The position numbers and the translations under genes are program-made. Shown here piece by piece: positions 2,990 to 50,432 of a stretch of DNA of 64,000 bases. A model generated the notes under the pieces. The model had not been told where the DNA came from and searched no databases. It saw only the letters and a program-made list of their open reading frames with translations. The DNA is from Enterobacteria phage KhF1. Position 1 is the stretch's first letter; each line of letters begins with the position of its first letter. The stretch lies in sequence record KT184313.1, one strand, 5' to 3'.

Positions 2990-3182
2990 TAGCACCTCTT
3001 CGTTGTAGTTCTTCCTTCAATCCATTTTCAATCTTGTCCAGTTCATGAATTTCATCTGCAATCTCTTTCCTTCGTGATTCAACTCTCTTAAGACGTTCAA
3101 TCATTACCTCATTGGAAAGAGATGAGAGTTCCACTAAACGGTGGTCAATAACTTTAAAATTGTCTTTTACTCTCATCTTCAT
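2982..3182 (-). CDS. hypothetical small coiled-coil protein
   Basis: ORF track; charged, helical-looking sequence; compact operon spacing. Confidence 0.4.
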   Translation of the reverse strand: MKMRVKDNFKVIDHRLVELSSLSNEVMIERLKRVESRRKEIADEIHELDKIENGLKEELQRRGANV

Positions 3183-3190
3183 TCTCTCTT

Positions 3191-3934
3191 TTAAACTTTA
3201 ATGATGGCTCTTAGCTTGTTCTCAAGGTCTGCAAGAGTACCATTATTATGAATAATGTCACGCTCATATTTTGTAGAAATCCCATTTTCTGAAACATGTG
3301 ATGAAACTTTGTCCACATTGTCTCTTTTTACTTCAATAGTTTGGTGTGCAAATCTACTCAGCCATTCAGCTTCAGAGTCAAATCTTAAATCACTGATTAA
3401 GACAAAACCATATTGGTTTCTAAGTGAGCACATTTCATGGAATCTAACCATTCTTTTTTCAAGGTCTTTAGACCAGAACTTGTCGCCCATTACTTTACGG
3501 ACAACTTCAGTACCCCAAACCTGTTGAATTTGTCTTGATGAGAATTTATACTTTTTACTAAACCCCAGACGTGTTAATAGGGTAGGTTTAGCAACCTTCT
3601 TAAGTTCCATGATTAAGCGTCCTGTCAATTCTGACATAAGTTTAAAGTCCATATGGTAACGTTCATCTCTGAAGGTGAACTCCATAGCTTCCGTAACTTT
3701 AAACATCAGTTCAGAGTATGATAAGTCAAAAACCTGTGGAGTCTCTTTAGTTTCACCGTACAGGTCATTCCAAGTCAAGTCAAATATCTTTGATGCAGAT
3801 AGTTTAAGGTTGTCTGCAAAGGCCATTACAGCAACATTGTAGCCATACTCATCCTCTAAGATGTTCTTCACAATAGAACATGAGGTGTCTTTTCCAGAAC
3901 GTGCCTTTCCAGTAAATGCGATAATATTACTCAT
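3191..3934 (-). CDS. P-loop kinase, putative deoxynucleoside monophosphate kinase
   Basis: N-terminal Walker A AFTGKARSGKDT; strong SD AAGGGAGA before ATG; location in nucleotide-metabolism context. Confidence 0.55.
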   Translation of the reverse strand: MSNIIAFTGKARSGKDTSCSIVKNILEDEYGYNVAVMAFADNLKLSASKIFDLTWNDLYGETKETPQVFDLSYSELMFKVTEAMEFTFRDERYHMDFKLMSELTGRLIMELKKVAKPTLLTRLGFSKKYKFSSRQIQQVWGTEVVRKVMGDKFWSKDLEKRMVRFHEMCSLRNQYGFVLISDLRFDSEAEWLSRFAHQTIEVKRDNVDKVSSHVSENGISTKYERDIIHNNGTLADLENKLRAIIKV

Positions 3935-3995: not shown

Positions 3996-4796
3996 TTAGT
4001 GCAGTTGCTCAGCAGACTCTTTTTCAGCCATAGCTGAGATTTGCTTCACAAAATCATCACCGAAGTTAATGCGTAGTTTCTCTTCAATGATTGAAGCACC
4101 AATATTCACCAAAACATCATTGATTGCTTGCATACTAACGCCACCAGTCATTTCCTCAATGAACTCAATACTCACACCCATCATCTGTGACAGTTGGATT
4201 AGTGCAACGATATTCATCATCGTAGAGATAGCTGGAATCATCAGTGCAACTTTCACCTGAAGTGGTTCAATGTCAGCTACAGAGTCATTTTCAACAGCTT
4301 CTTCCAAAGACTCTTTAGTTTGCTGGATAATCTCTTTGATTCGTGGGTTTAATTCTTCTACGCCCCAATCAAGTTTTTCATATCGTGAAAGTTTCTCTTC
4401 CATACGCTTCTCAAGAACAGCCATAACAGCACTCGTTGATGAGATAAGCGTATCAATAATGAAATCAGTGTCCTTAGTCAGCAACAGTTCCTTATCTTCG
4501 TCTGACATCCTGATATAGTCATTCTTTTGCATTTCATAAAAAATGAACTCAGCAAGTGCATCAACACCAACCGCAATAGATGCCAGAGCAAGTGTAGTGT
4601 CTGTTAACATCATGTTGACCTGTTCTGCAAAAGCACCGTTATCAGACTTGTCTTCAGGCAAGTTATAGCTTGCAGGCATAAACTGTTCTGTGTAGTTGTT
4701 ACCACGAAGAATCATAGCCATGCTTTCTACGGCATTGATTAAAAATGCTTCGTCAATACCTTTTTCTTCAAGCATCTTTTCTACATCGGTATTCAT
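3996..4796 (-). CDS. hypothetical acidic protein
   Basis: ORF track, 266 aa, Asp/Glu-rich; rho-independent terminator downstream. Confidence 0.5.
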   Translation of the reverse strand: MNTDVEKMLEEKGIDEAFLINAVESMAMILRGNNYTEQFMPASYNLPEDKSDNGAFAEQVNMMLTDTTLALASIAVGVDALAEFIFYEMQKNDYIRMSDEDKELLLTKDTDFIIDTLISSTSAVMAVLEKRMEEKLSRYEKLDWGVEELNPRIKEIIQQTKESLEEAVENDSVADIEPLQVKVALMIPAISTMMNIVALIQLSQMMGVSIEFIEEMTGGVSMQAINDVLVNIGASIIEEKLRINFGDDFVKQISAMAEKESAEQLH

Positions 4797-36239: not shown

Positions 36240-36739
36240 TAATTAAACCTTACTTTTTGTTTAAGGACTGTTGAATGGTTACCAGATTCATCTACCACAT
36301 TTACAATCATATCATATACTTTGCCTTTGACAAGTACTTTGTAATCATTTTGTGAAAAAATGTATTCAAGTCTGTTTGTTTCTTTATTAACTGTCATTGG
36401 AGATTGAAATGCAGTGTCGAGGGTAATGAAAGCGGCTTCAATGCTATTAACATTGATACGTTTATTCTCGCAGTTATATAACTTTACACCCAAAAGGCAT
36501 GAACTGTCAAATGGAATTTTAACAATTTCACTACAATTTCCTAAAATAAACGGTTTTCCACTCATTGGTGCATCAAGTAACCTGCAAATAGTGAAAACGT
36601 CAGAGGTTCCACCATCACTTACATAACCTGAAAGGCTGACCCTTGAGCCAGCCTCTACAGATAATTTGTCAGTGATAATAAGAACACCTCTATACGAATG
36701 CACTCGTGTAGCATTTGAAATAGAGATAACTTCAGCCAT
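36239..36739 (-). CDS. hypothetical protein
   Basis: ORF track, 166 aa. Confidence 0.4.
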   Translation of the reverse strand: MAEVISISNATRVHSYRGVLIITDKLSVEAGSRVSLSGYVSDGGTSDVFTICRLLDAPMSGKPFILGNCSEIVKIPFDSSCLLGVKLYNCENKRINVNSIEAAFITLDTAFQSPMTVNKETNRLEYIFSQNDYKVLVKGKVYDMIVNVVDESGNHSTVLKQKVRFN

Positions 36740-38214
36740 TATTTATTTGCCTTATTTGCTGTGCTTGGGTCTTTCGCTGAAGGTGTCTTTGCAGTGCCTT
36801 CCCCAGCGGTCTTATAACCATCTCCTGAACGGCTTTGGCTATTTGGAGAAAGCTTTTCAGATACTGGTTGAGACTCATCAGCAGGAGGAAGACCAATATG
36901 CTCTCTAAGCTTGTTAGATAGCTCTTTGTCAACTTCCAAAGCACCTACTGCAACAGTCTTCTGGATATAAGAACCAATTGCTTCAAGGTCTGGAGTTTCG
37001 ATATCATCATATGTGATTTGTACATGTTCTTCATCATCCCACATATTAAGAGCATAAGTCTGTGCAACTAAATCACGGTTAATTACGTTCTTAATTTGCT
37101 TCAGCAGAATATCTACTGACATTGCTAGTAAGCTTGTCTTAGAATCTGCAAGAGAGAATGAACCATATTTTGACTGACCCATAGCAAGAACATCTGACAT
37201 AAATGCCATCATAATCTGCTTGGAATATCTGTCAATAATAGAACCTGTATCGTATGCTTTAGCACCCTGTCTAGAAACTAATGAGAACTCGAAAATATCC
37301 TCTTTAGTATCTGGGTCGATATATCTAGGCCAGATTAAACCTGCTCTATCATTAGCAATCATATCGTTAACAACAGTTTTGCAGTATTGTACGAAAGCTT
37401 TCTTTTCAGGTTCTGCATTTTCATCCAGATAATCTGGTGGTAAACCAATCTTTGGCATACCTACCAAGTCTCTTGAAACACCAACAGCTTCGTACTCTTC
37501 AATCTGAACTTTATACTTCCACGGTACATAGGCATTAAGTAATGGTGAACGACCTTCTGGGTTTCCATATTCATCATCATACTTAAACAGCATGAATTTA
37601 GCTCGTGGAAGTTTTCTTGTTAGCGGTCTTTCTCCAAGATTAATTGCTCCAGCAATATGTGAAACATTTCTCAGATTCTGTCTGACACCAGTAACTTTTC
37701 TAAAGTCTTCGTCAAAATACCACTTATCAAGTGTTGATTGGTTTCTGATTGGTAATTTAGCCCATCCAATTAGACCATCATCAAATTTTGACTGGTACTT
37801 TCCTTTTTTACCCTGTCGCTTCTTATAAACTTTCTCGTTAACACAGAACCCATAAGTGCAGAATGACATTACAGAATTAATAAAATCTGCCCAATCATGC
37901 TCCATGTCATCCATTAAAGAATTAAAGAAGTCTGCTCTTTCAAGCATTTTAGGGTCTTGCTCTTTTCCCTTTGGAGGTACGAATCTCCAGTTGACTTTTC
38001 TGACAAACATCTTAATAATATTTACAGATGCTGCTACAGCAGGGTCACGCATCATTAATTGGAAAGTTTTAATACTTTCAGGGAACCTTAGTGCCTGACG
38101 AGGTTCTTCATAGATTCTTCCATTCTTAACCTTCAGACCCAAAGAACCTACTTCACCCATTCTAAATGGTGGTAAGCTTTCTTGTGTTTCTGTAATATCT
38201 GCCATTCTTCTCAC
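36739..38214 (-). CDS. portal protein
   Basis: 491 aa directly downstream of large terminase. Confidence 0.7.
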   Translation of the reverse strand: MRRMADITETQESLPPFRMGEVGSLGLKVKNGRIYEEPRQALRFPESIKTFQLMMRDPAVAASVNIIKMFVRKVNWRFVPPKGKEQDPKMLERADFFNSLMDDMEHDWADFINSVMSFCTYGFCVNEKVYKKRQGKKGKYQSKFDDGLIGWAKLPIRNQSTLDKWYFDEDFRKVTGVRQNLRNVSHIAGAINLGERPLTRKLPRAKFMLFKYDDEYGNPEGRSPLLNAYVPWKYKVQIEEYEAVGVSRDLVGMPKIGLPPDYLDENAEPEKKAFVQYCKTVVNDMIANDRAGLIWPRYIDPDTKEDIFEFSLVSRQGAKAYDTGSIIDRYSKQIMMAFMSDVLAMGQSKYGSFSLADSKTSLLAMSVDILLKQIKNVINRDLVAQTYALNMWDDEEHVQITYDDIETPDLEAIGSYIQKTVAVGALEVDKELSNKLREHIGLPPADESQPVSEKLSPNSQSRSGDGYKTAGEGTAKTPSAKDPSTANKANK

Positions 38215-38221
38215 CTAGCTA

Positions 38222-39838
38222 TCAACGTCTAAGCCCCTCATATGGGTTTCCTCTCACTAAGTCTGTGTGAGCACCCATTGATGGTGGCTTGAATAATTTA
38301 ACTTCGTTCAGACTGTTGAAAGCATCACTGGTAGCATCCACTTGGTCATCTTTAGTTTTGCCGTCACCACAAAAGCCTTCAAGTTCTTGAAAATAAGCTT
38401 CGTTCCAACTACCTCTCAAGACTTTTACAAGTCCAGCTTCAGAAGCAGCAGAAAATCCCGCAAAGCGGGTAACTTTATCTTTATTTGTTGGTTTGGCCCT
38501 TGCTCGATAACCTTTCTCGGCAAGTTTCCTGATGAGGGATGTTGCGTAGGATTTACCAGCAGCGCCTGGGTCTTGAGGGATAAAAATACCAGTTCGCTTA
38601 CCGTCACTTTCAGCAGTCAAATTAATTTGTGTTTCGACTCCAGAGGGTCTATCTCTAAATCTTACTACATCAATGATATAATAGCAACCGTCTTTTTTAG
38701 ATTTACCCATCTTAACACCTGCTGTCCAGTCTGGATTAGGGTTAACCTCAGATGGTAAAGTTGCTGCTAAGTCCCATGCTCTAACATCAAACACATCTTC
38801 TGGGAGTGAATCAACAATCTCACACCATTGTCTTTGCCAATAGTTTGAACCTTCTGCACGAGCCTTCCAGTTACCGAAACGAAGTCTTGCAACGTTTACA
38901 GGAGTGTTGTTTTCAAGCTTACCGCGATACTTTGGTTCTAAGAAGTCAAGAATTGGATTATCATCAATTGTACCAGAGATGAAGGTGTATGTTTGAGGAA
39001 TCTCAAGAGGGAACATTTCAAGAATCTTGTCTCTCTCCCAATCAGAAACCATCACACCATCATTCATTACATACCAACGAATACGACCACACTTTTCAGG
39101 GTCTGGGTAACCTTCTTCATCTAAGAATGGTTCTACCCAATCGTAAATAAAGTGGTCTCTATCTGGGTTCATGGAAATCTTCATGTATGAATCACCTTCA
39201 GCACCAGAACGTAGACGGGTTTGTAGGTATGAAATCTGTGAAGCAGAGAAGTGTGTACCTTCGTCAAAGTAAATAGCTGAGTATTCAATCCCCTGATGAC
39301 CTTCAGCGTGCTTTTCAAGTTCTAGGTAGGTAAACTTGATAGTTGCCCCAGAAGGGAATGTGATAGTCATTTTCTGCTCGTGAGGAATCCCACCAAACTT
39401 ACCAAATAGTTTCTTTGCAGCAGGCCATAAACCACCTTGTAACTGTGTTGTATTTCGACGGAAATATACAGCATTATAGTTAGGGTCTTCAATAAATCTT
39501 AAAGAGTCCATTAACAATGCAGCAGTTTTACCAGCACCAGCAGCACCACCATAAAGAACCAAGTCAGCATTAGTATTTAAAAAGACCTCTTGAGAACCCG
39601 GCTGAGGGGCTACATAGTTCTTATCAGTCATCAATTTGAAGATAAGTCTAACTTGGTCTGGTGTGTATCTTAATAAAGTCAGAATTTGAGTTGGAAGGAA
39701 TTTAGAGGGGTCTTTACCGAATGATTTGATAATTTCTTTTACTTCATCAGAAAGCCCCAACTCTCCAGCTAGGACTTTCCTAACATCTTCCACTCGCTTC
39801 TGCTTAACAGCATTTAAGTCCATTAAGCACCTCCGCAA
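38222..39838 (-). CDS. terminase large subunit
   Basis: Walker A VLYGGAAGAGKTAALL; ATPase then nuclease-like C-terminal half. Confidence 0.85.
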   Translation of the reverse strand: MRRCLMDLNAVKQKRVEDVRKVLAGELGLSDEVKEIIKSFGKDPSKFLPTQILTLLRYTPDQVRLIFKLMTDKNYVAPQPGSQEVFLNTNADLVLYGGAAGAGKTAALLMDSLRFIEDPNYNAVYFRRNTTQLQGGLWPAAKKLFGKFGGIPHEQKMTITFPSGATIKFTYLELEKHAEGHQGIEYSAIYFDEGTHFSASQISYLQTRLRSGAEGDSYMKISMNPDRDHFIYDWVEPFLDEEGYPDPEKCGRIRWYVMNDGVMVSDWERDKILEMFPLEIPQTYTFISGTIDDNPILDFLEPKYRGKLENNTPVNVARLRFGNWKARAEGSNYWQRQWCEIVDSLPEDVFDVRAWDLAATLPSEVNPNPDWTAGVKMGKSKKDGCYYIIDVVRFRDRPSGVETQINLTAESDGKRTGIFIPQDPGAAGKSYATSLIRKLAEKGYRARAKPTNKDKVTRFAGFSAASEAGLVKVLRGSWNEAYFQELEGFCGDGKTKDDQVDATSDAFNSLNEVKLFKPPSMGAHTDLVRGNPYEGLRR

Positions 39839-39844
39839 ATAGAA

Positions 39845-40045
39845 TTATTCAGAGTCTGTAGCAGTCTCTTCTTTCTTAACTTCGAACTTTGCATCAACAA
39901 CATCAAGAAGTGCATCCATAGATGCTTCTTTAATATCAATACCTGTTGCTACAGATAATCTGTCTGCAATTGCCATGATAGTGTTCTGCATAAATTCTAG
40001 CTTCTTATTAGCTTCATAAAGTTCTTTATAAACGGTCTCGCTCAT
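39845..40045 (-). CDS. hypothetical small protein upstream of terminase
   Basis: ORF track, 66 aa. Confidence 0.4.
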   Translation of the reverse strand: MSETVYKELYEANKKLEFMQNTIMAIADRLSVATGIDIKEASMDALLDVVDAKFEVKKEETATDSE

Positions 40046-40079
40046 TATGTTTTCTCCAAATAGTTAACCATGTTTCCCC

Positions 40080-40106
40080 TTAAAAAAGACGGTACAGAGA
40101 CCGTCA
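40080..40106 (-). terminator. rho-independent terminator downstream of tRNA cluster
   Basis: GACGGT-ctctgt-ACCGTC hairpin followed by TTTTTT on minus strand. Confidence 0.6.
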
Positions 40107-40267
40107 AGGAGAAACCACAATGTACGTCAGAGACATACTGTATAAGCCTTCTTATAAAGTATAACTCTGTAAAAAAGCCCTGTCTAAAAATACTCTTCGG
40201 TAGCGAAAGGAAGAATACTTATAGCAGGGCATTATTATTATTTTAATTGAGAGAGAGTAAAATAACT

Positions 40268-40343
40268 TGGAGAATCCGAAGGGACTCGAACCCTTATAAA
40301 CCTGTTTTGCAGACAGGCACATAGCCATTTCTGTCACGGATTC
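40268..40343 (-). tRNA. tRNA-Cys (anticodon GCA)
   Basis: Acceptor GAATCCG/CGGATTC, T-arm AAGGG-TTCGAGT-CCCTT, anticodon loop CTGCAAA, CCA encoded. Confidence 0.7.
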
Positions 40344-40347
40344 AAAT

Positions 40348-40440
40348 TGGAGGAAGATACCAGACTTGAACTGGTACACCGATTTCTCAGCTACTGGCAG
40401 TTTAGCAAACTGCTCCCTTACCTTTTAGGGTTAATCTTCC
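40348..40440 (-). tRNA. tRNA-Ser (anticodon GCT), long variable arm
   Basis: T-arm ACCAG-TTCAAGT-CTGGT, anticodon loop TTGCTAA, about 90 nt. Confidence 0.6.
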
Positions 40441-40441
40441 A

Positions 40442-41176
40442 TTATTTCTGTAATGCGTTCTTCATTTCTGGTGTTGCAATAGTGTCAATCACACCAGTTT
40501 TACAAGCATCATCAAACCAGTCTGGTAAGATACCTGCTAAGAACCCATTGATATTCGTTTTAAGGTACTCTGCAATAAGGGCAGCTTCTTCTTCAATCAT
40601 CTGCACAACTTCATCTGCATAAGCTGTAATCTTTGAGATACCTTCATTAATCTTACTGACAGCTTGGTTAGCTAAATCAGAAACAGTATCAAGACCCTTA
40701 TCAATAGCATCTTGTAAGTCACTTAACACACCATTAACACTATCTAGTGTACTGTTCATCATGTCAATAGCTTTTTGACCATACTCTGTAGCAACACCCA
40801 TAATACCACTGAATGGTGTACAACCAACTTGTTCTCCTGCTGCACCCATAACATTGGAGTATCCCTTTGCTACCTGCATACGTGATGAAAACTCATCAAT
40901 AGACTTTTGACCGTAGTCTGTTAGGGTCTTAGTAGTTGCTGTAGTGCTTGTAAGGCTTGTTGTAAAGCTGTTTAGAAGGACTGTTGTAAGTCCAGCAGCA
41001 ACAAGTTTCTCCTTCATTGTAGGGTCTGTTACAGAGCTAATAGAGCTTACAAGTGATGTAGAAGCAGCTACGGTTCCACCGAGAACTGCTGCACCAGTAA
41101 TAAGTGGGTTAGAGAACCCTTTACCGGTTTTTAAGAGATTAAAAATCTCCTTACCTTGTTCTGTCATCTCTTTCAT
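40442..41176 (-). CDS. hypothetical Ala/Thr/Ser-rich protein inside tRNA cluster
   Basis: ORF track; start moved to internal ATG at 41176 because the annotated start would overlap tRNA-Phe. Confidence 0.45.
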   Translation of the reverse strand: MKEMTEQGKEIFNLLKTGKGFSNPLITGAAVLGGTVAASTSLVSSISSVTDPTMKEKLVAAGLTTVLLNSFTTSLTSTTATTKTLTDYGQKSIDEFSSRMQVAKGYSNVMGAAGEQVGCTPFSGIMGVATEYGQKAIDMMNSTLDSVNGVLSDLQDAIDKGLDTVSDLANQAVSKINEGISKITAYADEVVQMIEEEAALIAEYLKTNINGFLAGILPDWFDDACKTGVIDTIATPEMKNALQK

Positions 41177-41192
41177 TAAGCACCTTTGAAAT

Positions 41193-41269
41193 TGGTAGTC
41201 CAGTGGGATTTGAACCCTCTTCTCATGTTTTTCAGACACGCGCTTTAACCATATAAGCTACTTGGACTA
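41193..41269 (-). tRNA. tRNA-Phe (anticodon GAA)
   Basis: Acceptor pairing, GGGTTCAAATCCC T-arm, anticodon loop CTGAAAA. Confidence 0.6.
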
Positions 41270-41274
41270 TAAAT

Positions 41275-41350
41275 TGGGGTGACCTACGGGATTTGAACCC
41301 GTATAGACCATGTTCACAGCATGGGTCATTACCATTTATGATAAGGCCAC
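41275..41350 (-). tRNA. tRNA-His (anticodon GTG)
   Basis: Acceptor GTGGCCT/AGGTCAC, anticodon stem CCATG/CATGG, loop CTGTGAA. Confidence 0.7.
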
Positions 41351-41381
41351 ATTTAAGGACTCTCGTAAGAATCCTTAGAAG

Positions 41382-41457
41382 TGGCAGCGGCATAAGGATT
41401 TGAACCTTAATAGGACAGCTTCAGAGACTGTTGCATTGCCAGTTATGCTATACCGCT
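41382..41457 (-). tRNA. tRNA-Gln (anticodon CTG)
   Basis: Acceptor AGCGGTA/TGCCGCT, T-loop TTCAAAT, anticodon loop CTCTGAA. Confidence 0.6.
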
Positions 41458-41462
41458 AAATT

Positions 41463-41534
41463 TGGTACTCCATATCGGATTCGAACCGATACATAACACA
41501 GATTTTAAGTCTGGCCTCTCTGCCAATTGGAGTA
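41463..41534 (-). tRNA. tRNA, short and atypical, isotype undetermined (anticodon possibly TAA)
   Basis: Acceptor ACTCCAA/TGGAGT, T-arm ATCGG-TTCGAAT-CCGAT; anticodon arm does not parse cleanly. Confidence 0.45.
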
Positions 41535-41543
41535 ATGGAGCAT

Positions 41544-41618
41544 TGGCGGGGGATGTTGGAATTGAACCAACTTCTTCGATTTCAAAGACCGAGGTTTTAA
41601 CCTTGTAAACTAATCCCC
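41544..41618 (-). tRNA. tRNA-Gln (anticodon TTG), tentative
   Basis: T-arm GTTGG-TTCAATT-CCAAC, anticodon loop CTTTGAA; acceptor pairing imperfect. Confidence 0.5.
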
Positions 41619-41627
41619 TTTAAATCT

Positions 41628-42185
41628 TTACTTTCTCAGTGGATGAATAAAGAATGCCAACATAACTCTTTCCCTTGAGAATGCTCTTTCTTCTGGGACA
41701 ACACTTTTTAGTTTCCATCCAATATAAATTCTCCAGTAAAACTGTTTACCAAAGACTTTAATTGATGGGATAAAGGCGAATAATCCCCAAGCATTACTGT
41801 TCCACATTAGGAGATAACCAGTCTGATTATCTTCAGGGTCAGAACTTACGTTGATATTACCTTTCCACTTAGTAACATCTTTTACATCTCTTCCTAATAC
41901 ATGGTAAGAGAAGTTATAAGCTTTGTTTCTCCAGAGCCATCCGACTCTTTGCATGTAGACGCCTAGTTTACCAATCCATCTAATATTAGCCCATCTTTTA
42001 ACGTGACCTTCATCACCATCAATTGGGTTGTCATATGTCTCCATCCATCTGAACCCGAAAGGTAAGTGTCCTTTCTTCTCACTGTAGAATGGAACTACAA
42101 AAGGTGCTAAGATAACTGCTAAGATTGCTGCAAATGGCTCTAACAAAGCTAAGAAAATCCATGAAACATATTTTAAGTATCTCAT
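41628..42185 (-). CDS. integral membrane protein
   Basis: N-terminal hydrophobic helices WIFLALLEPFAAILAVILAPFVVPF; Trp-rich. Confidence 0.5.
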   Translation of the reverse strand: MRYLKYVSWIFLALLEPFAAILAVILAPFVVPFYSEKKGHLPFGFRWMETYDNPIDGDEGHVKRWANIRWIGKLGVYMQRVGWLWRNKAYNFSYHVLGRDVKDVTKWKGNINVSSDPEDNQTGYLLMWNSNAWGLFAFIPSIKVFGKQFYWRIYIGWKLKSVVPEERAFSRERVMLAFFIHPLRK

Positions 42186-42424
42186 TGTCTAACCCTCGTA
42201 AGGAGGTAAGCATTATTATTTGTTTCTGAGCTTTCTGGTAACATTGTCTCAAAATTGACGCTTTTAAGTTGTCTTCCACCAAAGCAATGACCAATAAATC
42301 TTTCTACTTTTATTGGGTCGCATTCCCATCCGACTTTCAAGAAAATGTGGGTATCTATAGTGGGAACCCTTACAAACTCAATACTATTGGGATTTTCATG
42401 TTCAACGACGATTAATGTTTGCAT
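42182..42424 (-). CDS. hypothetical protein
   Basis: ORF track; ATGA overlap with downstream membrane-protein gene. Confidence 0.45.
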   Translation of the reverse strand: MQTLIVVEHENPNSIEFVRVPTIDTHIFLKVGWECDPIKVERFIGHCFGGRQLKSVNFETMLPESSETNNNAYLLTRVRQ

Positions 42425-42441
42425 AAATTCCTCTTGCTTAT

Positions 42442-42517
42442 CTGGCGCAGGATAAGGGATTCGAACCCCTATTAACAGCTTCGTAGACTGTTGCTCTATC
42501 CATTTGAACTAATCCTG
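42442..42517 (-). tRNA. tRNA-Arg (anticodon ACG)
   Basis: Acceptor GCAGGAT/ATCCTGC, T-arm GGGGTTCGAATCCC, anticodon loop CTACGAA. Confidence 0.7.
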
Positions 42518-42522
42518 CAAAA

Positions 42523-42600
42523 TTGGTGTTCCAAGACGGATTCGAACCGTCACTAGTACAAGGTTTGAGCTTGCATCCTCTGCCAATTGGGATACTGGAA
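42523..42600 (-). tRNA. tRNA with anticodon CAA (Leu-type anticodon on a short-variable-arm body)
   Basis: Acceptor GTTCCAG/TTGGAAC, T-arm GACGG-TTCGAAT-CCGTC, anticodon loop CTCAAAC. Confidence 0.5.
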
Positions 42601-42601
42601 C

Positions 42602-42677
42602 ATGGTACTCACTAAAGGACTTGAACCTTTTTCTTCATCTTGTAAGGGTGATGTTTTACCATATAAACTAAGCGAGT
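42602..42677 (-). tRNA. tRNA-Val (anticodon TAC)
   Basis: Acceptor TACTCGC/GTGAGTA, T-loop TTCAAGT, anticodon loop CTTACAA. Confidence 0.55.
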
Positions 42678-42681
42678 ATGA

Positions 42682-42768
42682 AAGAGGTCTGGAGTTGTGC
42701 CGCTAACTCAACTCCGTGGAATTTGTTACGGTCTTCAGTTGACTCAAAGCGGTCTTTCACTTGACCTC
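42682..42768 (-). ncRNA. tRNA-sized structured element, not a canonical tRNA
   Basis: 7-bp terminal pairing AGAGGTC/GACCTCT encloses a 7-bp hairpin GGAGTTG/CAACTCC; no TTCGA T-loop. Confidence 0.35.
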
Positions 42769-42772
42769 TGAA

Positions 42773-42848
42773 TTGGTGCTCCCACAAGGATTCGAACCCT
42801 GATAAGTTGCTTACAAGGCAACCGTAATAGCCAATTATACGATAGGAG
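42773..42848 (-). tRNA. tRNA-Thr (anticodon TGT)
   Basis: Acceptor GCTCCTA/TGGGAGC, anticodon stem GTTGC/GCAAC, loop CTTGTAA. Confidence 0.7.
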
Positions 42849-42855
42849 CATTAAT

Positions 42856-42931
42856 TTGGAGCATCCAGAGGGAATCGAACCCTCAACCTCAGTTTGGAAG
42901 ACTGTAATTTTCCCGTTTAAACTATGGATGC
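42856..42931 (-). tRNA. tRNA-Gly (anticodon TCC)
   Basis: Acceptor GCATCCA/TGGATGC, T-loop TTCGATT, anticodon loop CTTCCAA. Confidence 0.65.
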
Positions 42932-42936
42932 ACTAA

Positions 42937-43012
42937 TTGGTGGAGTCACTGAGAATTGAACTCAGTTCCCAAGTTTGCAAAACTCGAATTTTAACCATAT
43001 AAACTATGACCC
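42937..43012 (-). tRNA. tRNA-Ala (anticodon TGC)
   Basis: Acceptor GGGGTCA/TGACTCC (G3-T70 wobble), anticodon loop TTTGCAA. Confidence 0.65.
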
Positions 43013-43018
43013 CAATGT

Positions 43019-43095
43019 TTGGTACAGGTGGAGGGAATTGAACCCATCGTCTTACTGATTAAGAGTCAGCCGCATAACCATTTTGCTACACCTGC
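43019..43095 (-). tRNA. tRNA-Lys (anticodon CTT)
   Basis: Acceptor GCAGGTG/CACCTGT, anticodon stem GCTGA/TCAGT, loop CTCTTAA. Confidence 0.55.
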
Positions 43096-43101
43096 ATTAA
43101 T

Positions 43102-43180
43102 TTGGTGGGAGACAAGGGATTCGAACCCTCAAACACCAACTTCTAAGGATGGTAGGTTTACCAATTACCGTCAATCTCCC
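43102..43180 (-). tRNA. tRNA with anticodon TAG (Leu-type anticodon on a short-variable-arm body), tentative
   Basis: Acceptor GGGAGAT/GTCTCCC, T-arm GAGGG-TTCGAAT-CCCTT, anticodon loop CTTAGAA. Confidence 0.45.
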
Positions 43181-43438
43181 ATTAAATCTTTTTAGAGAAC
43201 TTCTAAGAACCTAAGCAACAAGGTTCCACAACAAGCTGTAATAACCTTAGAAGCCCTCTAAAAAGACCTAAAAAGGTCTTTGCATAGTCTTGTTTAATCC
43301 GGTGACTAGAACCTTTGGAGAGCTTGATATTATCTCTTCTCCGTGACACCTACTAGGTGCTTTACTGTGCGTGTACGACAATACACGAGGGATACCAAAG
43401 CAACATCCGAATGAAGCTTGGCTTTAAAATCTTATTAG

Positions 43439-43526
43439 GCGGTAAGTAAAGGAGTCGAACCCTCACCGTATCTCTACAGTGGCAACAGTTTTCAAGACTG
43501 TTTGGCTGCCATTAGCCGCTACCTAC
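43439..43526 (-). tRNA. tRNA-Ser (anticodon TGA), long variable arm
   Basis: Acceptor GGTAGGT/ACTTACC, anticodon stem ACAGT/ACTGT, loop CTTGAAA, about 88 nt. Confidence 0.6.
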
Positions 43527-43539
43527 CCCTAATAAGACT

Positions 43540-43622
43540 TTGGCATGGGACGGAGGAGTTGAACCCCTTTGAAACGGTTTTGGAGGCCGTTGCTCATGCC
43601 TTAGAGTCTTAACATCGTCCCA
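43540..43622 (-). tRNA. tRNA, atypical; possibly tRNA-Trp (anticodon CCA) with extended D region
   Basis: Acceptor GTGGGAC/GTCCCAT, T-loop TTCAACT, candidate anticodon loop CTCCAAA; about 8 extra nt in D region. Confidence 0.45.
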
Positions 43623-43774
43623 CACTATAATTCGAAGCTTACCCTATTATCTCAACACTGTAAAGCCCCTTCTCAGATTATTTACATGTTCTGGAAAACA
43701 TGAGATACAGACCACCTCCCTACAGGAAGACCCGCTTAGGTCGTATAAGTAATCTGCTAACTATTTGGCACACC

Positions 43775-43842
43775 CTACAGGATTCGAACCTGTAACTAAC
43801 GATTTAGAAGACCGTTGCTCTATCCAATTGAACTAAGGGTGC
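43775..43842 (-). tRNA. tRNA-Arg (anticodon TCT)
   Basis: Acceptor GCACCCT/AGGGTGT, T-arm ACAGG-TTCGAAT-CCTGT, anticodon loop CTTCTAA. Confidence 0.65.
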
Positions 43843-44088
43843 ATTAATCTTTAAAGACTCTCTTAGAAAGCCCTTAAAGATGCCCACCTTATTAATCATA
43901 CCGTGGGCGAGTACGCCAAATTCTTTGATGAGGGATTGGAAGACCTCACTGGTGTTTAGCCTATCAAGCTACTGCCAGAAAAACATTGTCGTTTGCATTT
44001 ATTTTAAATTTGCAAAATAGACGCTACGCAACGAAAACTAAGGTTACTATAAAGTGGTCACATCTCAATGTCAACAACTTTATTGAAA

Positions 44089-44164
44089 TTGGTACTGGTA
44101 GGTGGAATCGAACCACCGATGTTCCCTTATCAGGGGAGTGTTATAACCTTCTTAACTATACCAG
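44089..44164 (-). tRNA. tRNA-Ile (anticodon GAT)
   Basis: Acceptor GCTGGTA/TACCAGT, T-arm GGTGG-TTCGATT-CCACC, anticodon loop CTGATAA. Confidence 0.7.
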
Positions 44165-44165
44165 C

Positions 44166-44243
44166 TTGGAGGTTCAGATGGGAATCGAACCCACATTCAT
44201 AGGGCTTATGAGACCCTTGCATTACCTTATCTGCGACTGAACC
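44166..44243 (-). tRNA. tRNA-Met (anticodon CAT), copy 1
   Basis: Acceptor GGTTCAG/CTGAACC, anticodon stem AGGGT/GCCCT, loop CTCATAA. Confidence 0.65.
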
Positions 44244-44246
44244 ATT

Positions 44247-44322
44247 TTGGTAGAAGTGGAGGGATTCGAACCCATCGCCTGTCAGATTAAAAGTCTGCCG
44301 CATCACCATTCTGCTACACTTC
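44247..44322 (-). tRNA. tRNA-Lys (anticodon TTT)
   Basis: Acceptor GGAAGTG/CACTTCT, T-loop TTCGAAT, anticodon loop CTTTTAA. Confidence 0.6.
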
Positions 44323-44325
44323 CAT

Positions 44326-44469
44326 TAAATTATCTTTGTAGATAAGCTACCCAGACTTGCTTAAGGTCTGTAGCGATGTGCCTTGTTGGGTTTAAATCTA
44401 GAATTTACCCTTTCACCCTTTGTGGTCGCATACTCACAGGTAAGCTTAATAACTTATCTACAAAGATAA
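44326..44469. repeat. 19-bp perfect inverted repeat pair (AATTATCTTTGTAGATAAG) enclosing about 106 nt
   Basis: Arms at about 44326-44344 and 44451-44469 are exact reverse complements. Confidence 0.6.
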
Positions 44470-44470
44470 T

Positions 44471-44602
44471 TACCAGACCGTTGTTTATCATCTTAAGTGC
44501 TACCATTACACCAACTCGACATCTGCCGAGTGAAGGAATCGAACCTTCGCCTTTTCTTTACCGAGAAATAGATTGTTTAAGTTTTGCTGTAAACGGTCTT
44601 CT
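44471..44602 (-). ncRNA. tRNA-like domain in permuted (Y RNA-like / YrlA-like) arrangement inside a long closing stem
   Basis: On minus strand: T-arm GAAGG-TTCGATT-CCTTC, acceptor-like 7-bp helix ACTCGGC/GTCGAGT capped by a 4-nt loop, D-arm GTGT-AATGGTA-GCAC, CTTAA/TTAAG helix, outer stem AGACCGTT/AACGGTCT. Confidence 0.45.
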
Positions 44603-44615
44603 GTAAATTTGTTGA

Positions 44616-44691
44616 GCCAGACCAAGTTTTAAATTTTTCAAAATTAAATTGGCTTGAAATTTTCATACGTTCTTGCTGTATTTGGTCTTCT
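44616..44691 (-). repeat. spacer hairpin element, family member 2 (CCAGACCAA ... TTGGTCTTCTG)
   Basis: Same conserved arms and TTGCTGTA block as 44471..44602 but AT-rich interior. Confidence 0.5.
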
Positions 44692-44752
44692 GCTCCTTTA
44701 AAGGATACTCGTAAGAACCCTTTAAGGGAGGGGCTAAATAGCCCTCTCAAAA

Positions 44753-44829
44753 TTGGCGGCTACGATGAGACTTGAACTCACATCATCTCCCGTGACAGGG
44801 GAGTATTTTCTCCAGTTAAACTACATAGC
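44753..44829 (-). tRNA. tRNA-Asp (anticodon GTC)
   Basis: Acceptor GGCTATG/CGTAGCC, T-loop TTCAAGT, anticodon stem CTCCC/GGGAG, loop CTGTCAC. Confidence 0.7.
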
Positions 44830-44834
44830 CTTTA

Positions 44835-44922
44835 TTGGTGTGCCGTGTAGGAGTCGAACCTACCGAGTCTCAATGACAAGGGATTTACAGTCCCCACCGC
44901 TACCATCTACGGGATAACGACA
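44835..44922 (-). tRNA. tRNA-Tyr (anticodon GTA), long variable arm
   Basis: Acceptor GTGTCGT/ACGGCAC, T-arm GTAGG-TTCGACT-CCTAC, anticodon loop CTGTAAA. Confidence 0.65.
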
Positions 44923-44930
44923 CATTTAAT

Positions 44931-45007
44931 TTGGCGGTTAGTCAGGGATTCGAACCCTGTGCCATTCGCTTAACAGGCGACCGCACATACCTTATGTGCT
45001 TCCTAAC
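44931..45007 (-). tRNA. tRNA-Asn (anticodon GTT)
   Basis: T-arm CAGGG-TTCGAAT-CCCTG, anticodon loop CTGTTAA. Confidence 0.65.
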
Positions 45008-45020
45008 CATGTTTAGTATT

Positions 45021-45085
45021 ACCAGACCGTATATTTCAATTTTTTCCGCTAAAAATTTAATAAATATTGCTGTAAACGGTCTTCT
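45021..45085 (-). repeat. spacer hairpin element, family member 3 (CCAGACCGT ... AACGGTCTTCTG)
   Basis: Conserved arms and TTGCTGTAAACGGTCTTCTGTAAA block. Confidence 0.5.
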
Positions 45086-45091
45086 GTAAAT

Positions 45092-45167
45092 TTGGAGGCG
45101 GGTGCAGGAGTCGAACCTGCCGATACCATGCTAATGAGACATGTGAGACGCCCTTTCTCTATACCCG
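45092..45167 (-). tRNA. tRNA with anticodon CAT, copy 2 (initiator, elongator Met or Ile2 undetermined)
   Basis: T-arm GCAGG-TTCGACT-CCTGC, anticodon stem CATGT/GCATG, loop CTCATTA. Confidence 0.6.
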
Positions 45168-45179
45168 CAATTCTTAATG

Positions 45180-45251
45180 ACCAGACCAAATATCTTCTTT
45201 GTCCGATTAACTTTCAGATGAGTAGATTAAGTTTGCTGTAATTGGTCTTCT
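45180..45251 (-). repeat. spacer hairpin element, family member 4 (CCAGACCAA ... TTGGTCTTCTG)
   Basis: Conserved arms and TTGCTGTAATTGGTCTTCTG block. Confidence 0.5.
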
Positions 45252-45258
45252 GTCAAAA

Positions 45259-45336
45259 CTGGCGTTCCAGAAGGGATTTGAACCCTCAAATATCCACTTT
45301 GAAAGAGTGGTGACTTTACCATTTTGTCTACTGGAA
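45259..45336 (-). tRNA. tRNA-Glu (anticodon TTC)
   Basis: Acceptor GTTCCAG/CTGGAAC, anticodon stem CCACT/AGTGG, loop CTTTCAA. Confidence 0.7.
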
Positions 45337-45343
45337 CATTAAT

Positions 45344-45423
45344 TTGGTCTCCGTTGAAGGATTTGAACCCTCGACCCCTTGCTCCCAAAGCAAGTGCTGC
45401 TAAACCAAACTGAGCTAAACGGA
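45344..45423 (-). tRNA. tRNA-Pro (anticodon TGG)
   Basis: Acceptor CTCCGTT/AACGGAG, anticodon stem CTTGC/GCAAG, loop TTTGGGA. Confidence 0.7.
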
Positions 45424-45542
45424 GATAAACTTTTCAAACTCTATGTAACCACTTTAACATTATTTTTTAGTGATTGTCAAGAACTTTTTTAAAATATTTT
45501 TCAGTATCTTAGAAAAGCTCTCATTTCGTTTCTATGTAGAAC

Positions 45543-45571
45543 ATATTAAAGGGTATTAAACACATTGTCAA
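45543..45571 (-). promoter_or_regulatory. sigma70-like promoter reading into the tRNA cluster (TTGACA, 17 nt, TAATAT)
   Basis: Reverse complement reads GGTA-TTGACA-atgtgtttaataccctt-TAATAT; sits inside inverted repeat GGGTATT...AATACCC. Confidence 0.6.
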
Positions 45572-45589
45572 TACCCTTTTTAAAACTTT

Positions 45590-47005
45590 TTACCAGATAT
45601 AACGGTCAATCATTACTGCTTTGAGCATTACACTGATTGGGTCAAACTTCTCACCACCAAGCAGAGCTTTTAAAGTGGCTGGAGAGAACCCTGATACCAT
45701 TGCTACACCGTTATCCTTAACAGATACTTCGCAAGTACCATTACGGTTTGCTAAGTACCAGAATACCAGTTGTGGCATCTCATATCCAGCTTTTTTGTAC
45801 TTACTCTGAATTGCTTCAAAGTTTGTACGTCCGTTAGCTCCATCAACCTGATTGAACTCCATATCGGAGAAGATGATAAGCTTACTTGGCATATCTTTCT
45901 GAGTCAAGTTGTTTCTTTTACCTGTTTCAAGAATGCGGTCAAAAGCTGCTTGTAAGTTAGTTGAGCCATATTCAACGTGTCGCATCACCTGACGATGACG
46001 GTTTCGTAAATCACCACTCAATTCGATGAAATGAGGGTTTGTTGAATAAACCATTAACTCGTTCTTAAAGCAACCTGTATTGCGTTCTGCTACATACAAG
46101 GCAAGGGATACACCAATATCAAGGGCAGTGATTGAACCAAGATTCACCCAAGACATTGAGCTTGAAACATCAGTCATACACAGGATGTTTTCACCTTCTG
46201 CCATCCAGTTTGGTAGTGCTTTCCACTGCTCATTAGCAACATCTGCATTACCATACTTGATAGATTTAATCACATCGTATGGATAAACAGCACCAGCATT
46301 AATCTTAGTCTCGCCCTTTGATAAGGACTCAATGTAAGATTTGTAGCGTTCTCCATCTTTACGGTTAAAGAGTTTTTGGTAACGTGCAGCAGCAAGTGAA
46401 GGAATCTTACTGTAGTCGATATTACCAAACTCATTAGCAGAGATTTTTTGTTCAACTGTATCAGATAGTGCAGACAGCAGTGTGCGGTACTCTTTCTCAC
46501 TCAAGTTTGCAAACTTGCAGAAACGTTTTACAAACTGTTTGTGACGTGGTTTTACTCGTGGTAACCACTTAGCTGCTAAACCTGCTGTTGCAGGGTCTAG
46601 TAATGCTGCTTCTAAATGTTTGAAGGCATCTGTCTCGAAACGAGTACCTACAAAGATTTTGAAGTCATCAAAGCGACCAAGCTCTGCAATCTTATCCATA
46701 ATGCGAAGAACCTGCGTAGGTTCTAAAACTTTATCTTCAATCGCTTGAAGTAAAACAGTTCGGAAAGCTTTACGCTCACCCATACCTTCTCGTACATCTC
46801 GCATATGCAGTAAAATACGAACTGCAACATCAACATCCTCATGCAAAGCTTTGTATAACAAGTCTGGTAAGATTTCTACATTGCTACGGCTGGAACCAGC
46901 AGCTTTGTAAAAGTCCACAAGAGCAGACATTGATGAAGTATGGTTTACAGCACCATTTTCAGTTCGACCTGCATGAAGGTGCGCATGTTTAAATAATTCG
47001 CTCAT
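45590..47005 (-). CDS. von Willebrand factor A (MIDAS) domain protein with N-terminal helical domain
   Basis: MIDAS-like DVSSSM (DxSxS) at about residue 275 and downstream IIFSDMEF; N-terminal 270 aa unassigned. Confidence 0.65.
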   Translation of the reverse strand: MSELFKHAHLHAGRTENGAVNHTSSMSALVDFYKAAGSSRSNVEILPDLLYKALHEDVDVAVRILLHMRDVREGMGERKAFRTVLLQAIEDKVLEPTQVLRIMDKIAELGRFDDFKIFVGTRFETDAFKHLEAALLDPATAGLAAKWLPRVKPRHKQFVKRFCKFANLSEKEYRTLLSALSDTVEQKISANEFGNIDYSKIPSLAAARYQKLFNRKDGERYKSYIESLSKGETKINAGAVYPYDVIKSIKYGNADVANEQWKALPNWMAEGENILCMTDVSSSMSWVNLGSITALDIGVSLALYVAERNTGCFKNELMVYSTNPHFIELSGDLRNRHRQVMRHVEYGSTNLQAAFDRILETGKRNNLTQKDMPSKLIIFSDMEFNQVDGANGRTNFEAIQSKYKKAGYEMPQLVFWYLANRNGTCEVSVKDNGVAMVSGFSPATLKALLGGEKFDPISVMLKAVMIDRYIW

Positions 47006-48715: not shown

Positions 48716-49087
48716 ATGAAAGCTAAGAGTGCAAAAGACTTTTATTGCTTCCTACAATCCTATATCAATTCCGTGCAAAATGGTGAAAGGTACAACCTTA
48801 ATGATGTTATCCCGACACCTTTGACATGGAGACTAAGTAAATGGCCTGAAGAAGATATTACACCAACAATCGAACAACGCACCTACAAACCCGAAATCAA
48901 TATTCCAGACTCTGAGAATCTATTATATCCAATGTTCCATATTGTTGGTCTTGGAAGATTCCTTATGGATATTCAGTATGTAATTGGTAAAGGTTATAAG
49001 GTTAAAGGTATTGTTGTTGGTGATGTATCTCCGCATCACAAAGGTTATTTTAGACTAAACGCACATTTAGAGGCTAAAAAGAAATGA
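48716..49087 (+). CDS. hypothetical protein, paralogous to N-terminal domain of the next gene
   Basis: Shares conserved positions with 49084..49968 product (KAK..DF, RY, WPE.DI, YKP, LLY, FMDLQY.I..GK). Confidence 0.5.
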   Translation: MKAKSAKDFYCFLQSYINSVQNGERYNLNDVIPTPLTWRLSKWPEEDITPTIEQRTYKPEINIPDSENLLYPMFHIVGLGRFLMDIQYVIGKGYKVKGIVVGDVSPHHKGYFRLNAHLEAKKK

Positions 49088-49968
49088 TTAAAGCAAAGAC
49101 TTACCCAGACTTCAAAGAGTTTGTGAAGGGCTTCATTGCAAACGTAAAGGCTGGTAAGAGGTATGATTTTAGAACATATCAAGAGGCTATTTTACCACTT
49201 ACCTATAGCTCGTATTGGCCTGAAGCTGATATTGCAGAAGTTGAGAAGTTTGACTATAAACCAGACTATAAAGTTCCTTTTAGTGATGAACTCCTTTACA
49301 GTGTTGGTGCACAGATGAGAACTGCTGATTTCTTCATGGATTTGCAGTATGCAATCATCAATGGTAAAGATGTTGACACTATTTACTGTGAATGGTTGGC
49401 AAGAGTTAAGCCGTTCTCAATGTTGAATGCTAAGCTGAAGGATGCTATCAAGCCACCAGCAATTACTCAGCAACCAACAGGTCAAACAGTCAATGAGGGT
49501 GGCACACTTACCCTAAGCATTCTAGCAACTAACGCCACTGGATATCAGTGGAAGAAGGATGGTGAGGATATCCCTAGTGCCAATTCTGCAACTTACACAA
49601 AACAGTCAGTAGCACCTTCTGATGCTGGTTCATACACTTGTGTTGTATCTGGAGAGGGTGGAACAAGTGTTACCTCAGATGCAGCAACAGTGACTGTGAA
49701 TGCACTTCCAGTAATCACTCAACAGCCAACCAATCAAGAAATCACTGAAGGTGAAACCTTAACGCTGAATGTTGTGGCAACAGGTGCGACAGGTTACCAG
49801 TGGAAGAAAGGTGAGGAAGACATCCTCGATGCAACTACTGCAACTTACACCAAAGAAGGTGCAACCGCTGCTGATTCAGGAAGCTACACCTGTGTAGTGA
49901 CTGGTGCAGGTGGTTCTGTAACGTCTAATGCTGCAACAGTTACTGTTAACCCAGCAGGGGAGGCATAA
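49084..49968 (+). CDS. protein with N-terminal paralogous domain and two tandem Ig-like domains
   Basis: Two ~85-aa repeats each with GYQWKK...ATYT...GSYTCVV (Ig I-set-like strand pattern). Confidence 0.6.
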   Translation: MIKAKTYPDFKEFVKGFIANVKAGKRYDFRTYQEAILPLTYSSYWPEADIAEVEKFDYKPDYKVPFSDELLYSVGAQMRTADFFMDLQYAIINGKDVDTIYCEWLARVKPFSMLNAKLKDAIKPPAITQQPTGQTVNEGGTLTLSILATNATGYQWKKDGEDIPSANSATYTKQSVAPSDAGSYTCVVSGEGGTSVTSDAATVTVNALPVITQQPTNQEITEGETLTLNVVATGATGYQWKKGEEDILDATTATYTKEGATAADSGSYTCVVTGAGGSVTSNAATVTVNPAGEA

Positions 49969-50432
49969 TGCAACTCTCAAGAAAAGGTTTAGAAGCTATT
50001 AAGTTCTTCGAAGGTCTTGAGTTAGAGGCTTACGAAGACTCTGCCGGAATCCCAACAATCGGGTATGGTACAATTCGTATTGACGGAAAACCTGTTAAGA
50101 TGGGAATGAAAATCACCGCTGAACAAGCTGAACAGTATCTTCTCGCGGATGTTGAGAAGTTTGTTGCAGCAGTGAACAAAGCTATCAAGGTTCCAACTAC
50201 TCAGAATGAGTTCGATGCACTTGTAAGTGAAACATACAACATCGGTATCACAGCTATGCAGGATTCCACATTTATCAAGCGCCACAATGCTGGTAATAAG
50301 GTAGGTTGTGCAGAAGCTATGCAGTGGTGGAACAAGGTTACAGTCAAAGGTAAGAAGGTCACTTCAAACGGTCTTAAAAACAGACGTAGGATGGAAGCTG
50401 ACATTTATCTTGACAGTGTATACCCAAAGTAA
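49968..50432 (+). CDS. endolysin, T4 lysozyme family (GH24)
   Basis: N-terminal FEGLELEAYEDSAGIPTIGYGT catalytic Glu/Asp/Thr signature; about 154 aa. Confidence 0.8.
   Translation: MQLSRKGLEAIKFFEGLELEAYEDSAGIPTIGYGTIRIDGKPVKMGMKITAEQAEQYLLADVEKFVAAVNKAIKVPTTQNEFDALVSETYNIGITAMQDSTFIKRHNAGNKVGCAEAMQWWNKVTVKGKKVTSNGLKNRRRMEADIYLDSVYPK

Follow-up and report, generated by a model that had tools for sequence, protein, structure and literature searches.

The 64,000-nucleotide (nt) stretch of the genome of Enterobacteria phage KhF1 analysed here (sequence record KT184313.1; the whole stretch is referred to as the window) comes from a Felixounavirus, i.e. a Felix O1-like myovirus, and has ~97% identity to many deposited genomes. 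It contains a large cluster of tRNA genes in which three protein-coding open reading frames (ORFs) are embedded; we designated them as genes A, B and C (Table 1). ARAGORN detected 26 tRNA genes in the window, all of them on the minus strand between positions 40268 and 45424 and confirmed by Rfam tRNA matches; 25 encode their own 3' CCA. The three ORFs are wedged among these genes on the same strand. The minimal spacing ascribed to them in the original prediction, which had been made from the sequence alone, was borne out by ARAGORN and the list of ORFs, with spacers of 1-18 nt, and C and B overlap by 4 nt at the stop codon of the former and the start codon of the latter (ATGA). The same prediction placed the beginning of tRNA-Arg 18 nt upstream of C; this distance is correct, but the gene runs from 42518 to 42443 and thus ends there. 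Gene A appears in the mechanically produced ORF list as a frame of 265 amino acids (aa) with a GTG start (40442..41239) that overlaps tRNA-Phe. As had been proposed, an internal ATG has to be used instead: the one at 41176 leads to the 244-aa gene A and is the start of the corresponding 735-nt coding sequence in every deposited relative. The description of the A protein as rich in Ala and Thr also holds, if moderately (11.1% Thr, 9.8% Ala).

Table 1. Features of the tRNA/ORF unit of phage KhF1 and of its borders (positions in the window).
Feature	Position	Strand	Basis and remarks
Upstream-gene hairpin (Felix O1 terminator t42/t43)	45548..45579	-	Scan; lies between the 471-aa upstream gene and the tRNA unit
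Sigma-70-type promoter-like site, TTGACA-18 nt-TAAAGT, TG-extended -10	45451..45480	-	Consensus scan; 27 nt upstream of tRNA-Pro
tRNA-Arg(ACG)	42443..42518	-	ARAGORN; 3' CCA 18 nt before the C start (ATG)
Gene C, 80 aa, phrog_14202	42182..42424	-	PHROG match, dN/dS, Shine-Dalgarno motif
Gene B, 185 aa, 22 kDa, isoelectric point (pI) 9.9, DUF7338	41628..42185	-	Pfam, AlphaFold2, dN/dS, contexts
tRNA-Gln(UUG)	41544..41619	-	ARAGORN; begins 8 nt past the B stop
tRNA-Phe	41193..41268	-	ARAGORN; CCA 16 nt before the A ATG
Gene A, 244 aa, 25.7 kDa, pI 4.5, DUF7217	40442..41176	-	Pfam, AlphaFold2, dN/dS, alignment
tRNA-Ser(GCU)	40348..40440	-	ARAGORN; begins 1 nt past the A stop codon
20-bp hairpin + U6, likely terminator of the tRNA/ORF unit	40171..40230	-	~40 nt past the last tRNA (Cys)
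Second terminator-like hairpin + T-run	40082..40105	-	Before the 66-aa ORF and the terminase gene

Past the cluster, the minus strand continues with a 66-aa ORF and the genes for the large terminase (38222-39838) and the portal protein (36739-38214), and this order of cluster, 66-aa ORF, terminase and portal is the same in Felix O1, wV8 and Citrobacter phage HP1. The region 40200-42700 has 96-98% identity to ~200 deposited phage genomes, nearly all of them Felixounavirus from Salmonella, Escherichia and Shigella hosts. The same genes with the same tRNA neighbours are found in Felix O1 (NC_005282; ORF48 and ORF49), wV8 (gp054-056) and HP1 (HP1_23-25), where the A and B proteins are 95-100% identical, and the Felix O1 genome paper covers both the tRNA groups and the ORFs among them (PMC3185647). 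Felix O1 differs in that it lacks gene C, possesses three HNH endonuclease genes in the cluster (none in the window) as well as another small ORF, and has 22 reported tRNAs vs 26 detectable in the window. The layout with genes in a tRNA cluster is ordinary, and hundreds of Felix O1-like genomes already carry annotations of it.

Units combining tRNAs and mRNAs are known from phages T4 and T5, whose tRNA regions contain ORFs and homing-endonuclease genes, from the thrU-tyrU-glyT-thrT-tufB operon of E. coli and from mitochondria ("tRNA punctuation"). The proposed unit of the window resembles all of them in the same-strand tRNAs and ORFs, the minimal spacers and the expected maturation by RNase P and at the 3' ends. 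The spacers of the tufB operon are looser than those of the window, however, and the mRNAs of the window would have almost no untranslated regions (UTRs). Coding sequences interspersed in tRNA clusters were also seen directly in the genomes of Aeromonas phage Ah1 and Pseudomonas phage phiPsa381.

Purifying selection, Shine-Dalgarno motifs and family matches mark A, B and C as real genes. The A protein matches the Pfam family DUF7217 (PF23854) over profile positions 2-238 of 238 (293.5 bits at a cut-off of 29, E = 1.7e-87), and B matches DUF7338 (PF24027) over positions 1-176 of 180 (208 bits at a cut-off of 27, E = 1.1e-61); the latter is the result of the homology search of the membrane protein that had been suggested as a check. 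C covers the complete profile of phrog_14202 (positions 1-76 of 76, E = 2.4e-40) and has no Pfam or NCBIfam match. The ratio of nonsynonymous to synonymous divergence (dN/dS) in comparisons with five relatives is 0.04-0.13 for A and 0.07-0.12 for B, the differences being mostly at third codon positions, and it stays low against HP1, where synonymous sites are saturated (synonymous divergence, dS, ~1). For C, dN/dS is 0.23 (vs wV8), and the ORF is intact down to 44% identity. Shine-Dalgarno-like motifs stand 4-7 nt before the ATG of A (AAAGGTG), B (GAGGG) and C (AAGAGGA, 4 nt ahead). Ribosome-binding sites and conservation, the lack of which had been named as the sign of spurious reading frames, are thus present in all three cases.

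That the ORFs are nothing but chance frames in tRNA spacers is in fact hardly credible. When the region 40000-46000 was shuffled 200 times, the longest run without a stop codon had a mean of 110 codons and a maximum of 183; A and B are longer than any of these runs, and together with their matches to curated hidden Markov models, their confidently predicted structures (predicted local distance difference test score, pLDDT, >90) and dN/dS values of ~0.1 this leads us to regard the spurious-frame reading as refuted for these two. It could apply most easily to C, which with 80 aa is within the chance range and belongs to no Pfam or NCBIfam family, and other small ORFs annotated in the clusters of relatives do look spurious, e.g., ORF46 of Felix O1. 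The case for C as a gene therefore rests on conservation: the frame remains intact from 100% to 44% identity at the dN/dS given above, and its Shine-Dalgarno motif is strong.

The ORFs are probably co-transcribed with the tRNAs, as the original prediction had proposed. A shared transcript is supported by the spacers of 1-18 nt without a promoter in them, by the conserved promoter and terminators at the ends of the unit and by the early class to which the Felix O1 counterparts were assigned. All genes are on one strand, and consensus scans revealed no promoter- or terminator-like site in the spacers flanking A, B and C, whereas sites of both kinds are present at the ends. Both hexamers of the promoter-like site upstream of tRNA-Pro are kept in Felix O1 and wV8, and in HP1 the -10 hexamer is TATAGT. 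The hairpin of the preceding gene is conserved in the aligned relatives and identical in sequence to t42 of Felix O1 (PMC3185647, Table 2). For the hairpin with U6 past tRNA-Cys, a consensus fold over four phages contains one compensatory change (U-A to C-G). The promoter and the terminators are retained from Felixounavirus to Mooglevirus, while the synonymous divergence of the ORFs over this distance is saturated (dS ~1). In Felix O1, expression of ORFs 45, 46, 48 and 49, which lie within the cluster, peaks at 5 min, and that of ORFs 51-53, which follow the terminators, at 25-60 min (PMC3185647, Table 3).

Several points weigh against this picture. The authors of the Felix O1 study termed their Table 3 preliminary, and several structural genes are in the 5-min class as well (PMC3185647). 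Moreover, both co-transcription and processing are what we infer from the arrangement, and no transcript-level (RNA-seq) study of any Felixounavirus was found in the literature. The ORFs could instead be driven by internal promoters of their own, either of host type or phage-specific, their place between the tRNAs being incidental. A site with 11 of 12 matches within the cluster (44074-44046) means that several starts are possible; a weak match (9/12) is present inside C, upstream of B (42241-42212), and the late promoters of Felix O1 are undefined, hence invisible to a consensus scan. However, with 16 nt ahead of A and 18 nt ahead of C there is no room for a promoter outside the tRNA genes; the scan was empty on the minus strand at 42425-42700 and 41177-41400; and nothing resembling a terminator lies between the tRNAs and the ORFs. 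We therefore consider internal promoters improbable.

According to the co-transcription model, host RNA polymerase would start at the conserved promoter of sigma-70 type that closely precedes tRNA-Pro, transcribe across tRNAs and ORFs and stop at the conserved hairpin-U6 terminators past tRNA-Cys. Host enzymes would then excise the tRNAs, RNase P at the 5' ends and RNase E together with 3' exonucleases at the encoded CCA ends. This cutting should leave two mRNAs, a bicistronic one for C and B and a monocistronic one for A, with leaders of 16-18 nt, each containing a Shine-Dalgarno motif, and with 3' tails of 1-8 nt; translation of B would be coupled to that of C via the ATGA overlap. As a whole, the explanation (genuine genes in a Felix O1-type tRNA operon, expressed from a processed transcript, with the roles of A, B and C proposed below) appears likely to us.

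Two further observations concern the transcription of this region. The best promoter match of the region is not the one upstream of tRNA-Pro but the site mentioned above within the cluster (44046-44074, minus strand; TTGACA-17 nt-TATAGT, 11/12), between tRNA-Ile and tRNA-Arg(UCU), and transcription of the downstream half of the cluster, including all three ORFs, might also begin there. The non-coding stretch of ~220 nt between tRNA-Cys and the 66-aa ORF (40040-40267, minus strand) contains three consecutive hairpins and is ~92% conserved even in Mooglevirus HP1, i.e. more than the neighbouring coding sequence (dS ~1). This conservation goes beyond the need of a simple terminator, and a late promoter, a regulatory site or a small RNA may also be located there.

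The only new lead provided by the locus is gene B, a member of DUF7338 that looks lysis-related. AlphaFold2 (pLDDT 91.9) predicts a single N-terminal membrane helix (residues 2-32, hydropathy peak 2.38) and a Trp-rich alpha/beta domain, with a fold for which there is no solved relative. The earlier characterization of B as a Trp-rich integral membrane protein is right as to composition (5.9% Trp) and wrong if a multi-pass protein was meant, since only this one helix is predicted. In divergent DUF7338 members the positive charges stay on the N-terminal flank of the helix and its C-terminal flank is neutral or acidic, which favours an N-in topology; B is probably a single-pass inner-membrane protein with N-in/C-out orientation. 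The "holin" label carried by some records stems from the topology-based annotation of the phages Mushroom and Moogle, where a class III holin with one transmembrane domain, N-in and C-out, was proposed (PMC4392139, PMC4319497), and no experimental work on a holin role of B was found in the literature. Searches of solved-structure sequences, NCBIfam and Pfam gave no function for A, B or C, and no paper mentioning DUF7217 or DUF7338 was found. B is similar in architecture to holin T of phage T4 (class III, Pfam Phage_holin_T): it is of comparable size (185 vs 218 aa), and one membrane helix close to the N-terminus precedes a large C-terminal domain. Homology to T was rejected, the hhalign probability being 0.1 and a Pfam scan at E <= 1 giving no Phage_holin_T match.

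Evidence for a role in lysis comes from the genomic contexts of DUF7338. In Ah1 and avDM12-TAAL, T4-like phages of Aeromonas from two genera, the DUF7338 gene is located between the tail-fibre genes and asiA and adjoins a lysozyme gene, i.e. it occupies the slot of gene t in T4. The complete genome of Ah1 (221 kb) contains no recognizable T-holin homologue (best tblastn E = 0.9). Instead of T, the t locus of both phages (213537-215006 in Ah1, NC_055733) encodes the DUF7338 protein, the lysozyme and an ORF with a membrane helix and a coiled coil; the 165-aa lysozyme of avDM12-TAAL is annotated as "baseplate central spike gp5". Furthermore, DUF7338 genes lie within lysis cassettes of three unrelated metagenomic phages, each with a different endolysin and with spanins: next to a GH108 endolysin and an Rz-type spanin in the first (L012), to a peptidase M15 endolysin and inner- and outer-membrane spanins in the second (L019), and as the last gene after a holin_2 gene, Phage_lysozyme, DUF2570 and LysC in the third (L030). 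DUF7338 is thus linked to lysis genes in five phages, which represent four independent contexts with four cassette types; two of these also hold a small holin-like gene. The recurring linkage with lysis cassettes and the occupation of the t slot in Ah1, a phage without T, support an involvement of B in host lysis, either as a holin of T4-T-like topology or as a holin accessory, and we regard this as about an even call.

A number of findings count against a lysis role. B has no sequence or profile similarity to T, and production from an early sigma-70 promoter would be atypical of a holin. RB43-like phages and T4-like phages of Klebsiella and Enterobacter appear to carry both the T holin and DUF7338, as seen across close relatives, not within one genome. 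A canonical small holin or a holin-like membrane protein is already encoded in the cassettes of L019 and L030, where the B homologues may have an accessory part instead of being the holin. In five other DUF7338 contexts the neighbours are uninformative, and in phage Moabite the gene adjoins a tailspike gene. Finally, the endolysin gene of the window (49968-50432, plus strand) is ~8 kb away from B and on the opposite strand. This endolysin (154 aa) follows a 294-aa protein with two Ig-like repeats (49084-50432, plus strand, for both) and has no membrane-protein neighbour, a setting that agrees with reports of dispersed lysis genes in Felix O1-like phages.

B could rather be an early envelope protein acting in superinfection exclusion or receptor masking, of the kind often encoded beside tail fibres. 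Its position behind a sigma-70-type promoter and the assignment of Felix O1 ORF48 to the 5-min class would fit such a function, as would the tail-fibre or tailspike neighbours in five contexts (Ah1, avDM12-TAAL, Moabite, L012 and L019), a DUF7338 homologue that additionally has a tail-fibre C-terminal Pfam match, the apparent coexistence with T in RB43-like phages and the small holin-like proteins of the L019 and L030 cassettes. Tail-fibre genes are, however, simply the last structural genes ahead of many lysis cassettes, the DUF7338 gene of L030 follows the spanins and has no tail-fibre neighbour, and in Ah1, which possesses no other recognizable holin, the gene is adjacent to that for lysozyme. 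An envelope function separate from lysis therefore seems rather unlikely to us. Returning to the lysis role, one may tentatively go further and see in DUF7338 an unrecognized holin family of T4-T-like topology, which would have replaced T at the t locus of some Aeromonas T4-like phages and would long have been kept in the tRNA operon of Felix O1-type and Otagovirus phages; we regard this as possible, if somewhat doubtful. The DUF7338 gene of Pseudomonas phage phiPsa381 (Otagovirus) is likewise inside a tRNA cluster, and this location therefore reaches beyond the Ounavirinae.

Gene A belongs to DUF7217, a small family that forms 22 clusters at 50% identity in a set of 1.8 billion proteins. AlphaFold2 models the protein as a compact all-helical bundle (pLDDT 94.9), and a fold search matched only generic helical bundles. 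In the family alignment C119 and C225 are nearly invariant, and the weakly hydrophobic segment 25-47 is not conserved. Homologues of the same length with ~27-29% full-length identity and the conserved cysteines are found in Ackermannviridae, e.g., ORF129 of LIMEstone1 and the "putative structural protein" of Kuttervirus; unlike A, they are encoded near a gp3-like tail-completion gene and not in a tRNA cluster. The neighbourhoods of divergent DUF7217 members were uninformative. ORF129 (25.03 kDa) was detected in LIMEstone1 virions with two peptides and 18% coverage, and the same preparation gave single peptides of DNA ligase and rIIB (PMC3296691). A is probably a soluble acidic helical-bundle protein and may be carried in the virion. 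Its carriage is put in question by the stringent list of Felix O1 virion proteins, from which A is missing, and the reported identity of gp49 with a 51-kDa band is at odds with the 25.7-kDa A protein (PMC3185647); the wV8 proteome paper contains nothing on the A orthologue. The gp4-gp2-gp3-like synteny in Kuttervirus led to T4 gp2, the DNA end protector, as a candidate for A, which was rejected: BLASTP gave E = 6.5, and the adjacent "GTP-binding" protein belongs to the SLOG family, whereas T4 gp4 is TnsA-like.

Some deposited records label members of this family "putative membrane protein", which would make A an inner-membrane protein, and residues 25-43 just pass the hydropathy threshold (1.62). 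Ala, Gly, Ser and Thr abound in this segment, though, and it is not hydrophobic in homologues; AlphaFold2 packs it as one helix of the bundle, and the protein has a pI of 4.5 and no signal peptide. A membrane location of A is therefore quite improbable, and the label is probably wrong for DUF7217.

Gene C is present in 69 phage records (44-100% identity), all Ounavirinae by name except one labelled Staphylococcus phage SA1, and also matches seven protein clusters at at least 74% identity. The protein is predicted to be soluble. C is a fast-evolving, lineage-specific accessory gene. The candidate role of an RIII-like cofactor was dropped, as C has no similarity to RIII of Ah1.

The tRNA cluster is evidently a plastic site whose inter-tRNA spacers gain and lose small genes. 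The HNH genes ORF44 and ORF45 of Felix O1 (positions 3031-3516 and 4004-4396 of the compared segment L006) are replaced in the window by tRNA-Met (43766-43842) and tRNA-Arg(UCU) (44167-44243). Between tRNA-Leu(CAA) and tRNA-Arg(ACG), Felix O1 (L006, 5960-6350) and HP1 (L007, 3140-3500) possess a small ORF with its own AGGAG motif, where the window (42519-42523) and wV8 have a gap of only 5 nt. The homologue of Felix O1 ORF46 (43271-43466, minus strand) is frameshifted into two frames, and its start overlaps tRNA-Ser(UGA), which has no annotation in Felix O1. ORF46 is unlikely to be a gene.

Some elements of the cluster are of uncertain type. The gap of 238 nt between tRNA-Ser(UGA) and tRNA-Arg(UCU) contains a tRNA-like element that was not called by ARAGORN (43547-43621, minus strand), with an acceptor-like stem (GGGACGA...CGTCCCA) and a CCA (Trp-type) anticodon loop; its Rfam tRNA-clan match is only 23 bits (E = 0.43), and it may be a degenerate or unusual tRNA-Trp. 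In the 430-nt gap 44324-44753, where no convincing ORF was found, an orphan T-arm-like hairpin (44530-44550, minus strand; GCGAAGGTTCGATTCCTTCAC) without other recognizable tRNA parts looks like a tRNA remnant. Sub-threshold Rfam matches were obtained for a MIR473 hairpin (43176-43275, 32.7 bits) and, at 43843-44148 (minus strand), for transfer-messenger RNA (tmRNA) and permuted tmRNA (16-30 bits vs a gathering score of 47). ARAGORN found no tmRNA in the window, though the genome notes of Felix O1 and Moogle mention an "ssrA/tmRNA" call by this program.

ORFs interspersed among phage tRNA genes are commonplace, and the arrangement itself adds little; what the analysis contributes concerns gene B and the membrane-protein label of DUF7217. 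The holin of Felix O1-type phages has, to our knowledge, never been identified experimentally, and B is a concrete candidate for it; these phages are used in Salmonella diagnostics and biocontrol. The copied "holin" label of DUF7338, which formerly had topology as its only basis, gains independent contextual support from the linkage with lysis cassettes and the replacement of T, with the clear caveats given above. If DUF7338 proteins are indeed holins, the trigger of lysis in these phages would be tied to transcription of a tRNA operon and to processing by RNases P and E, with the protein being made from an almost UTR-less mRNA.

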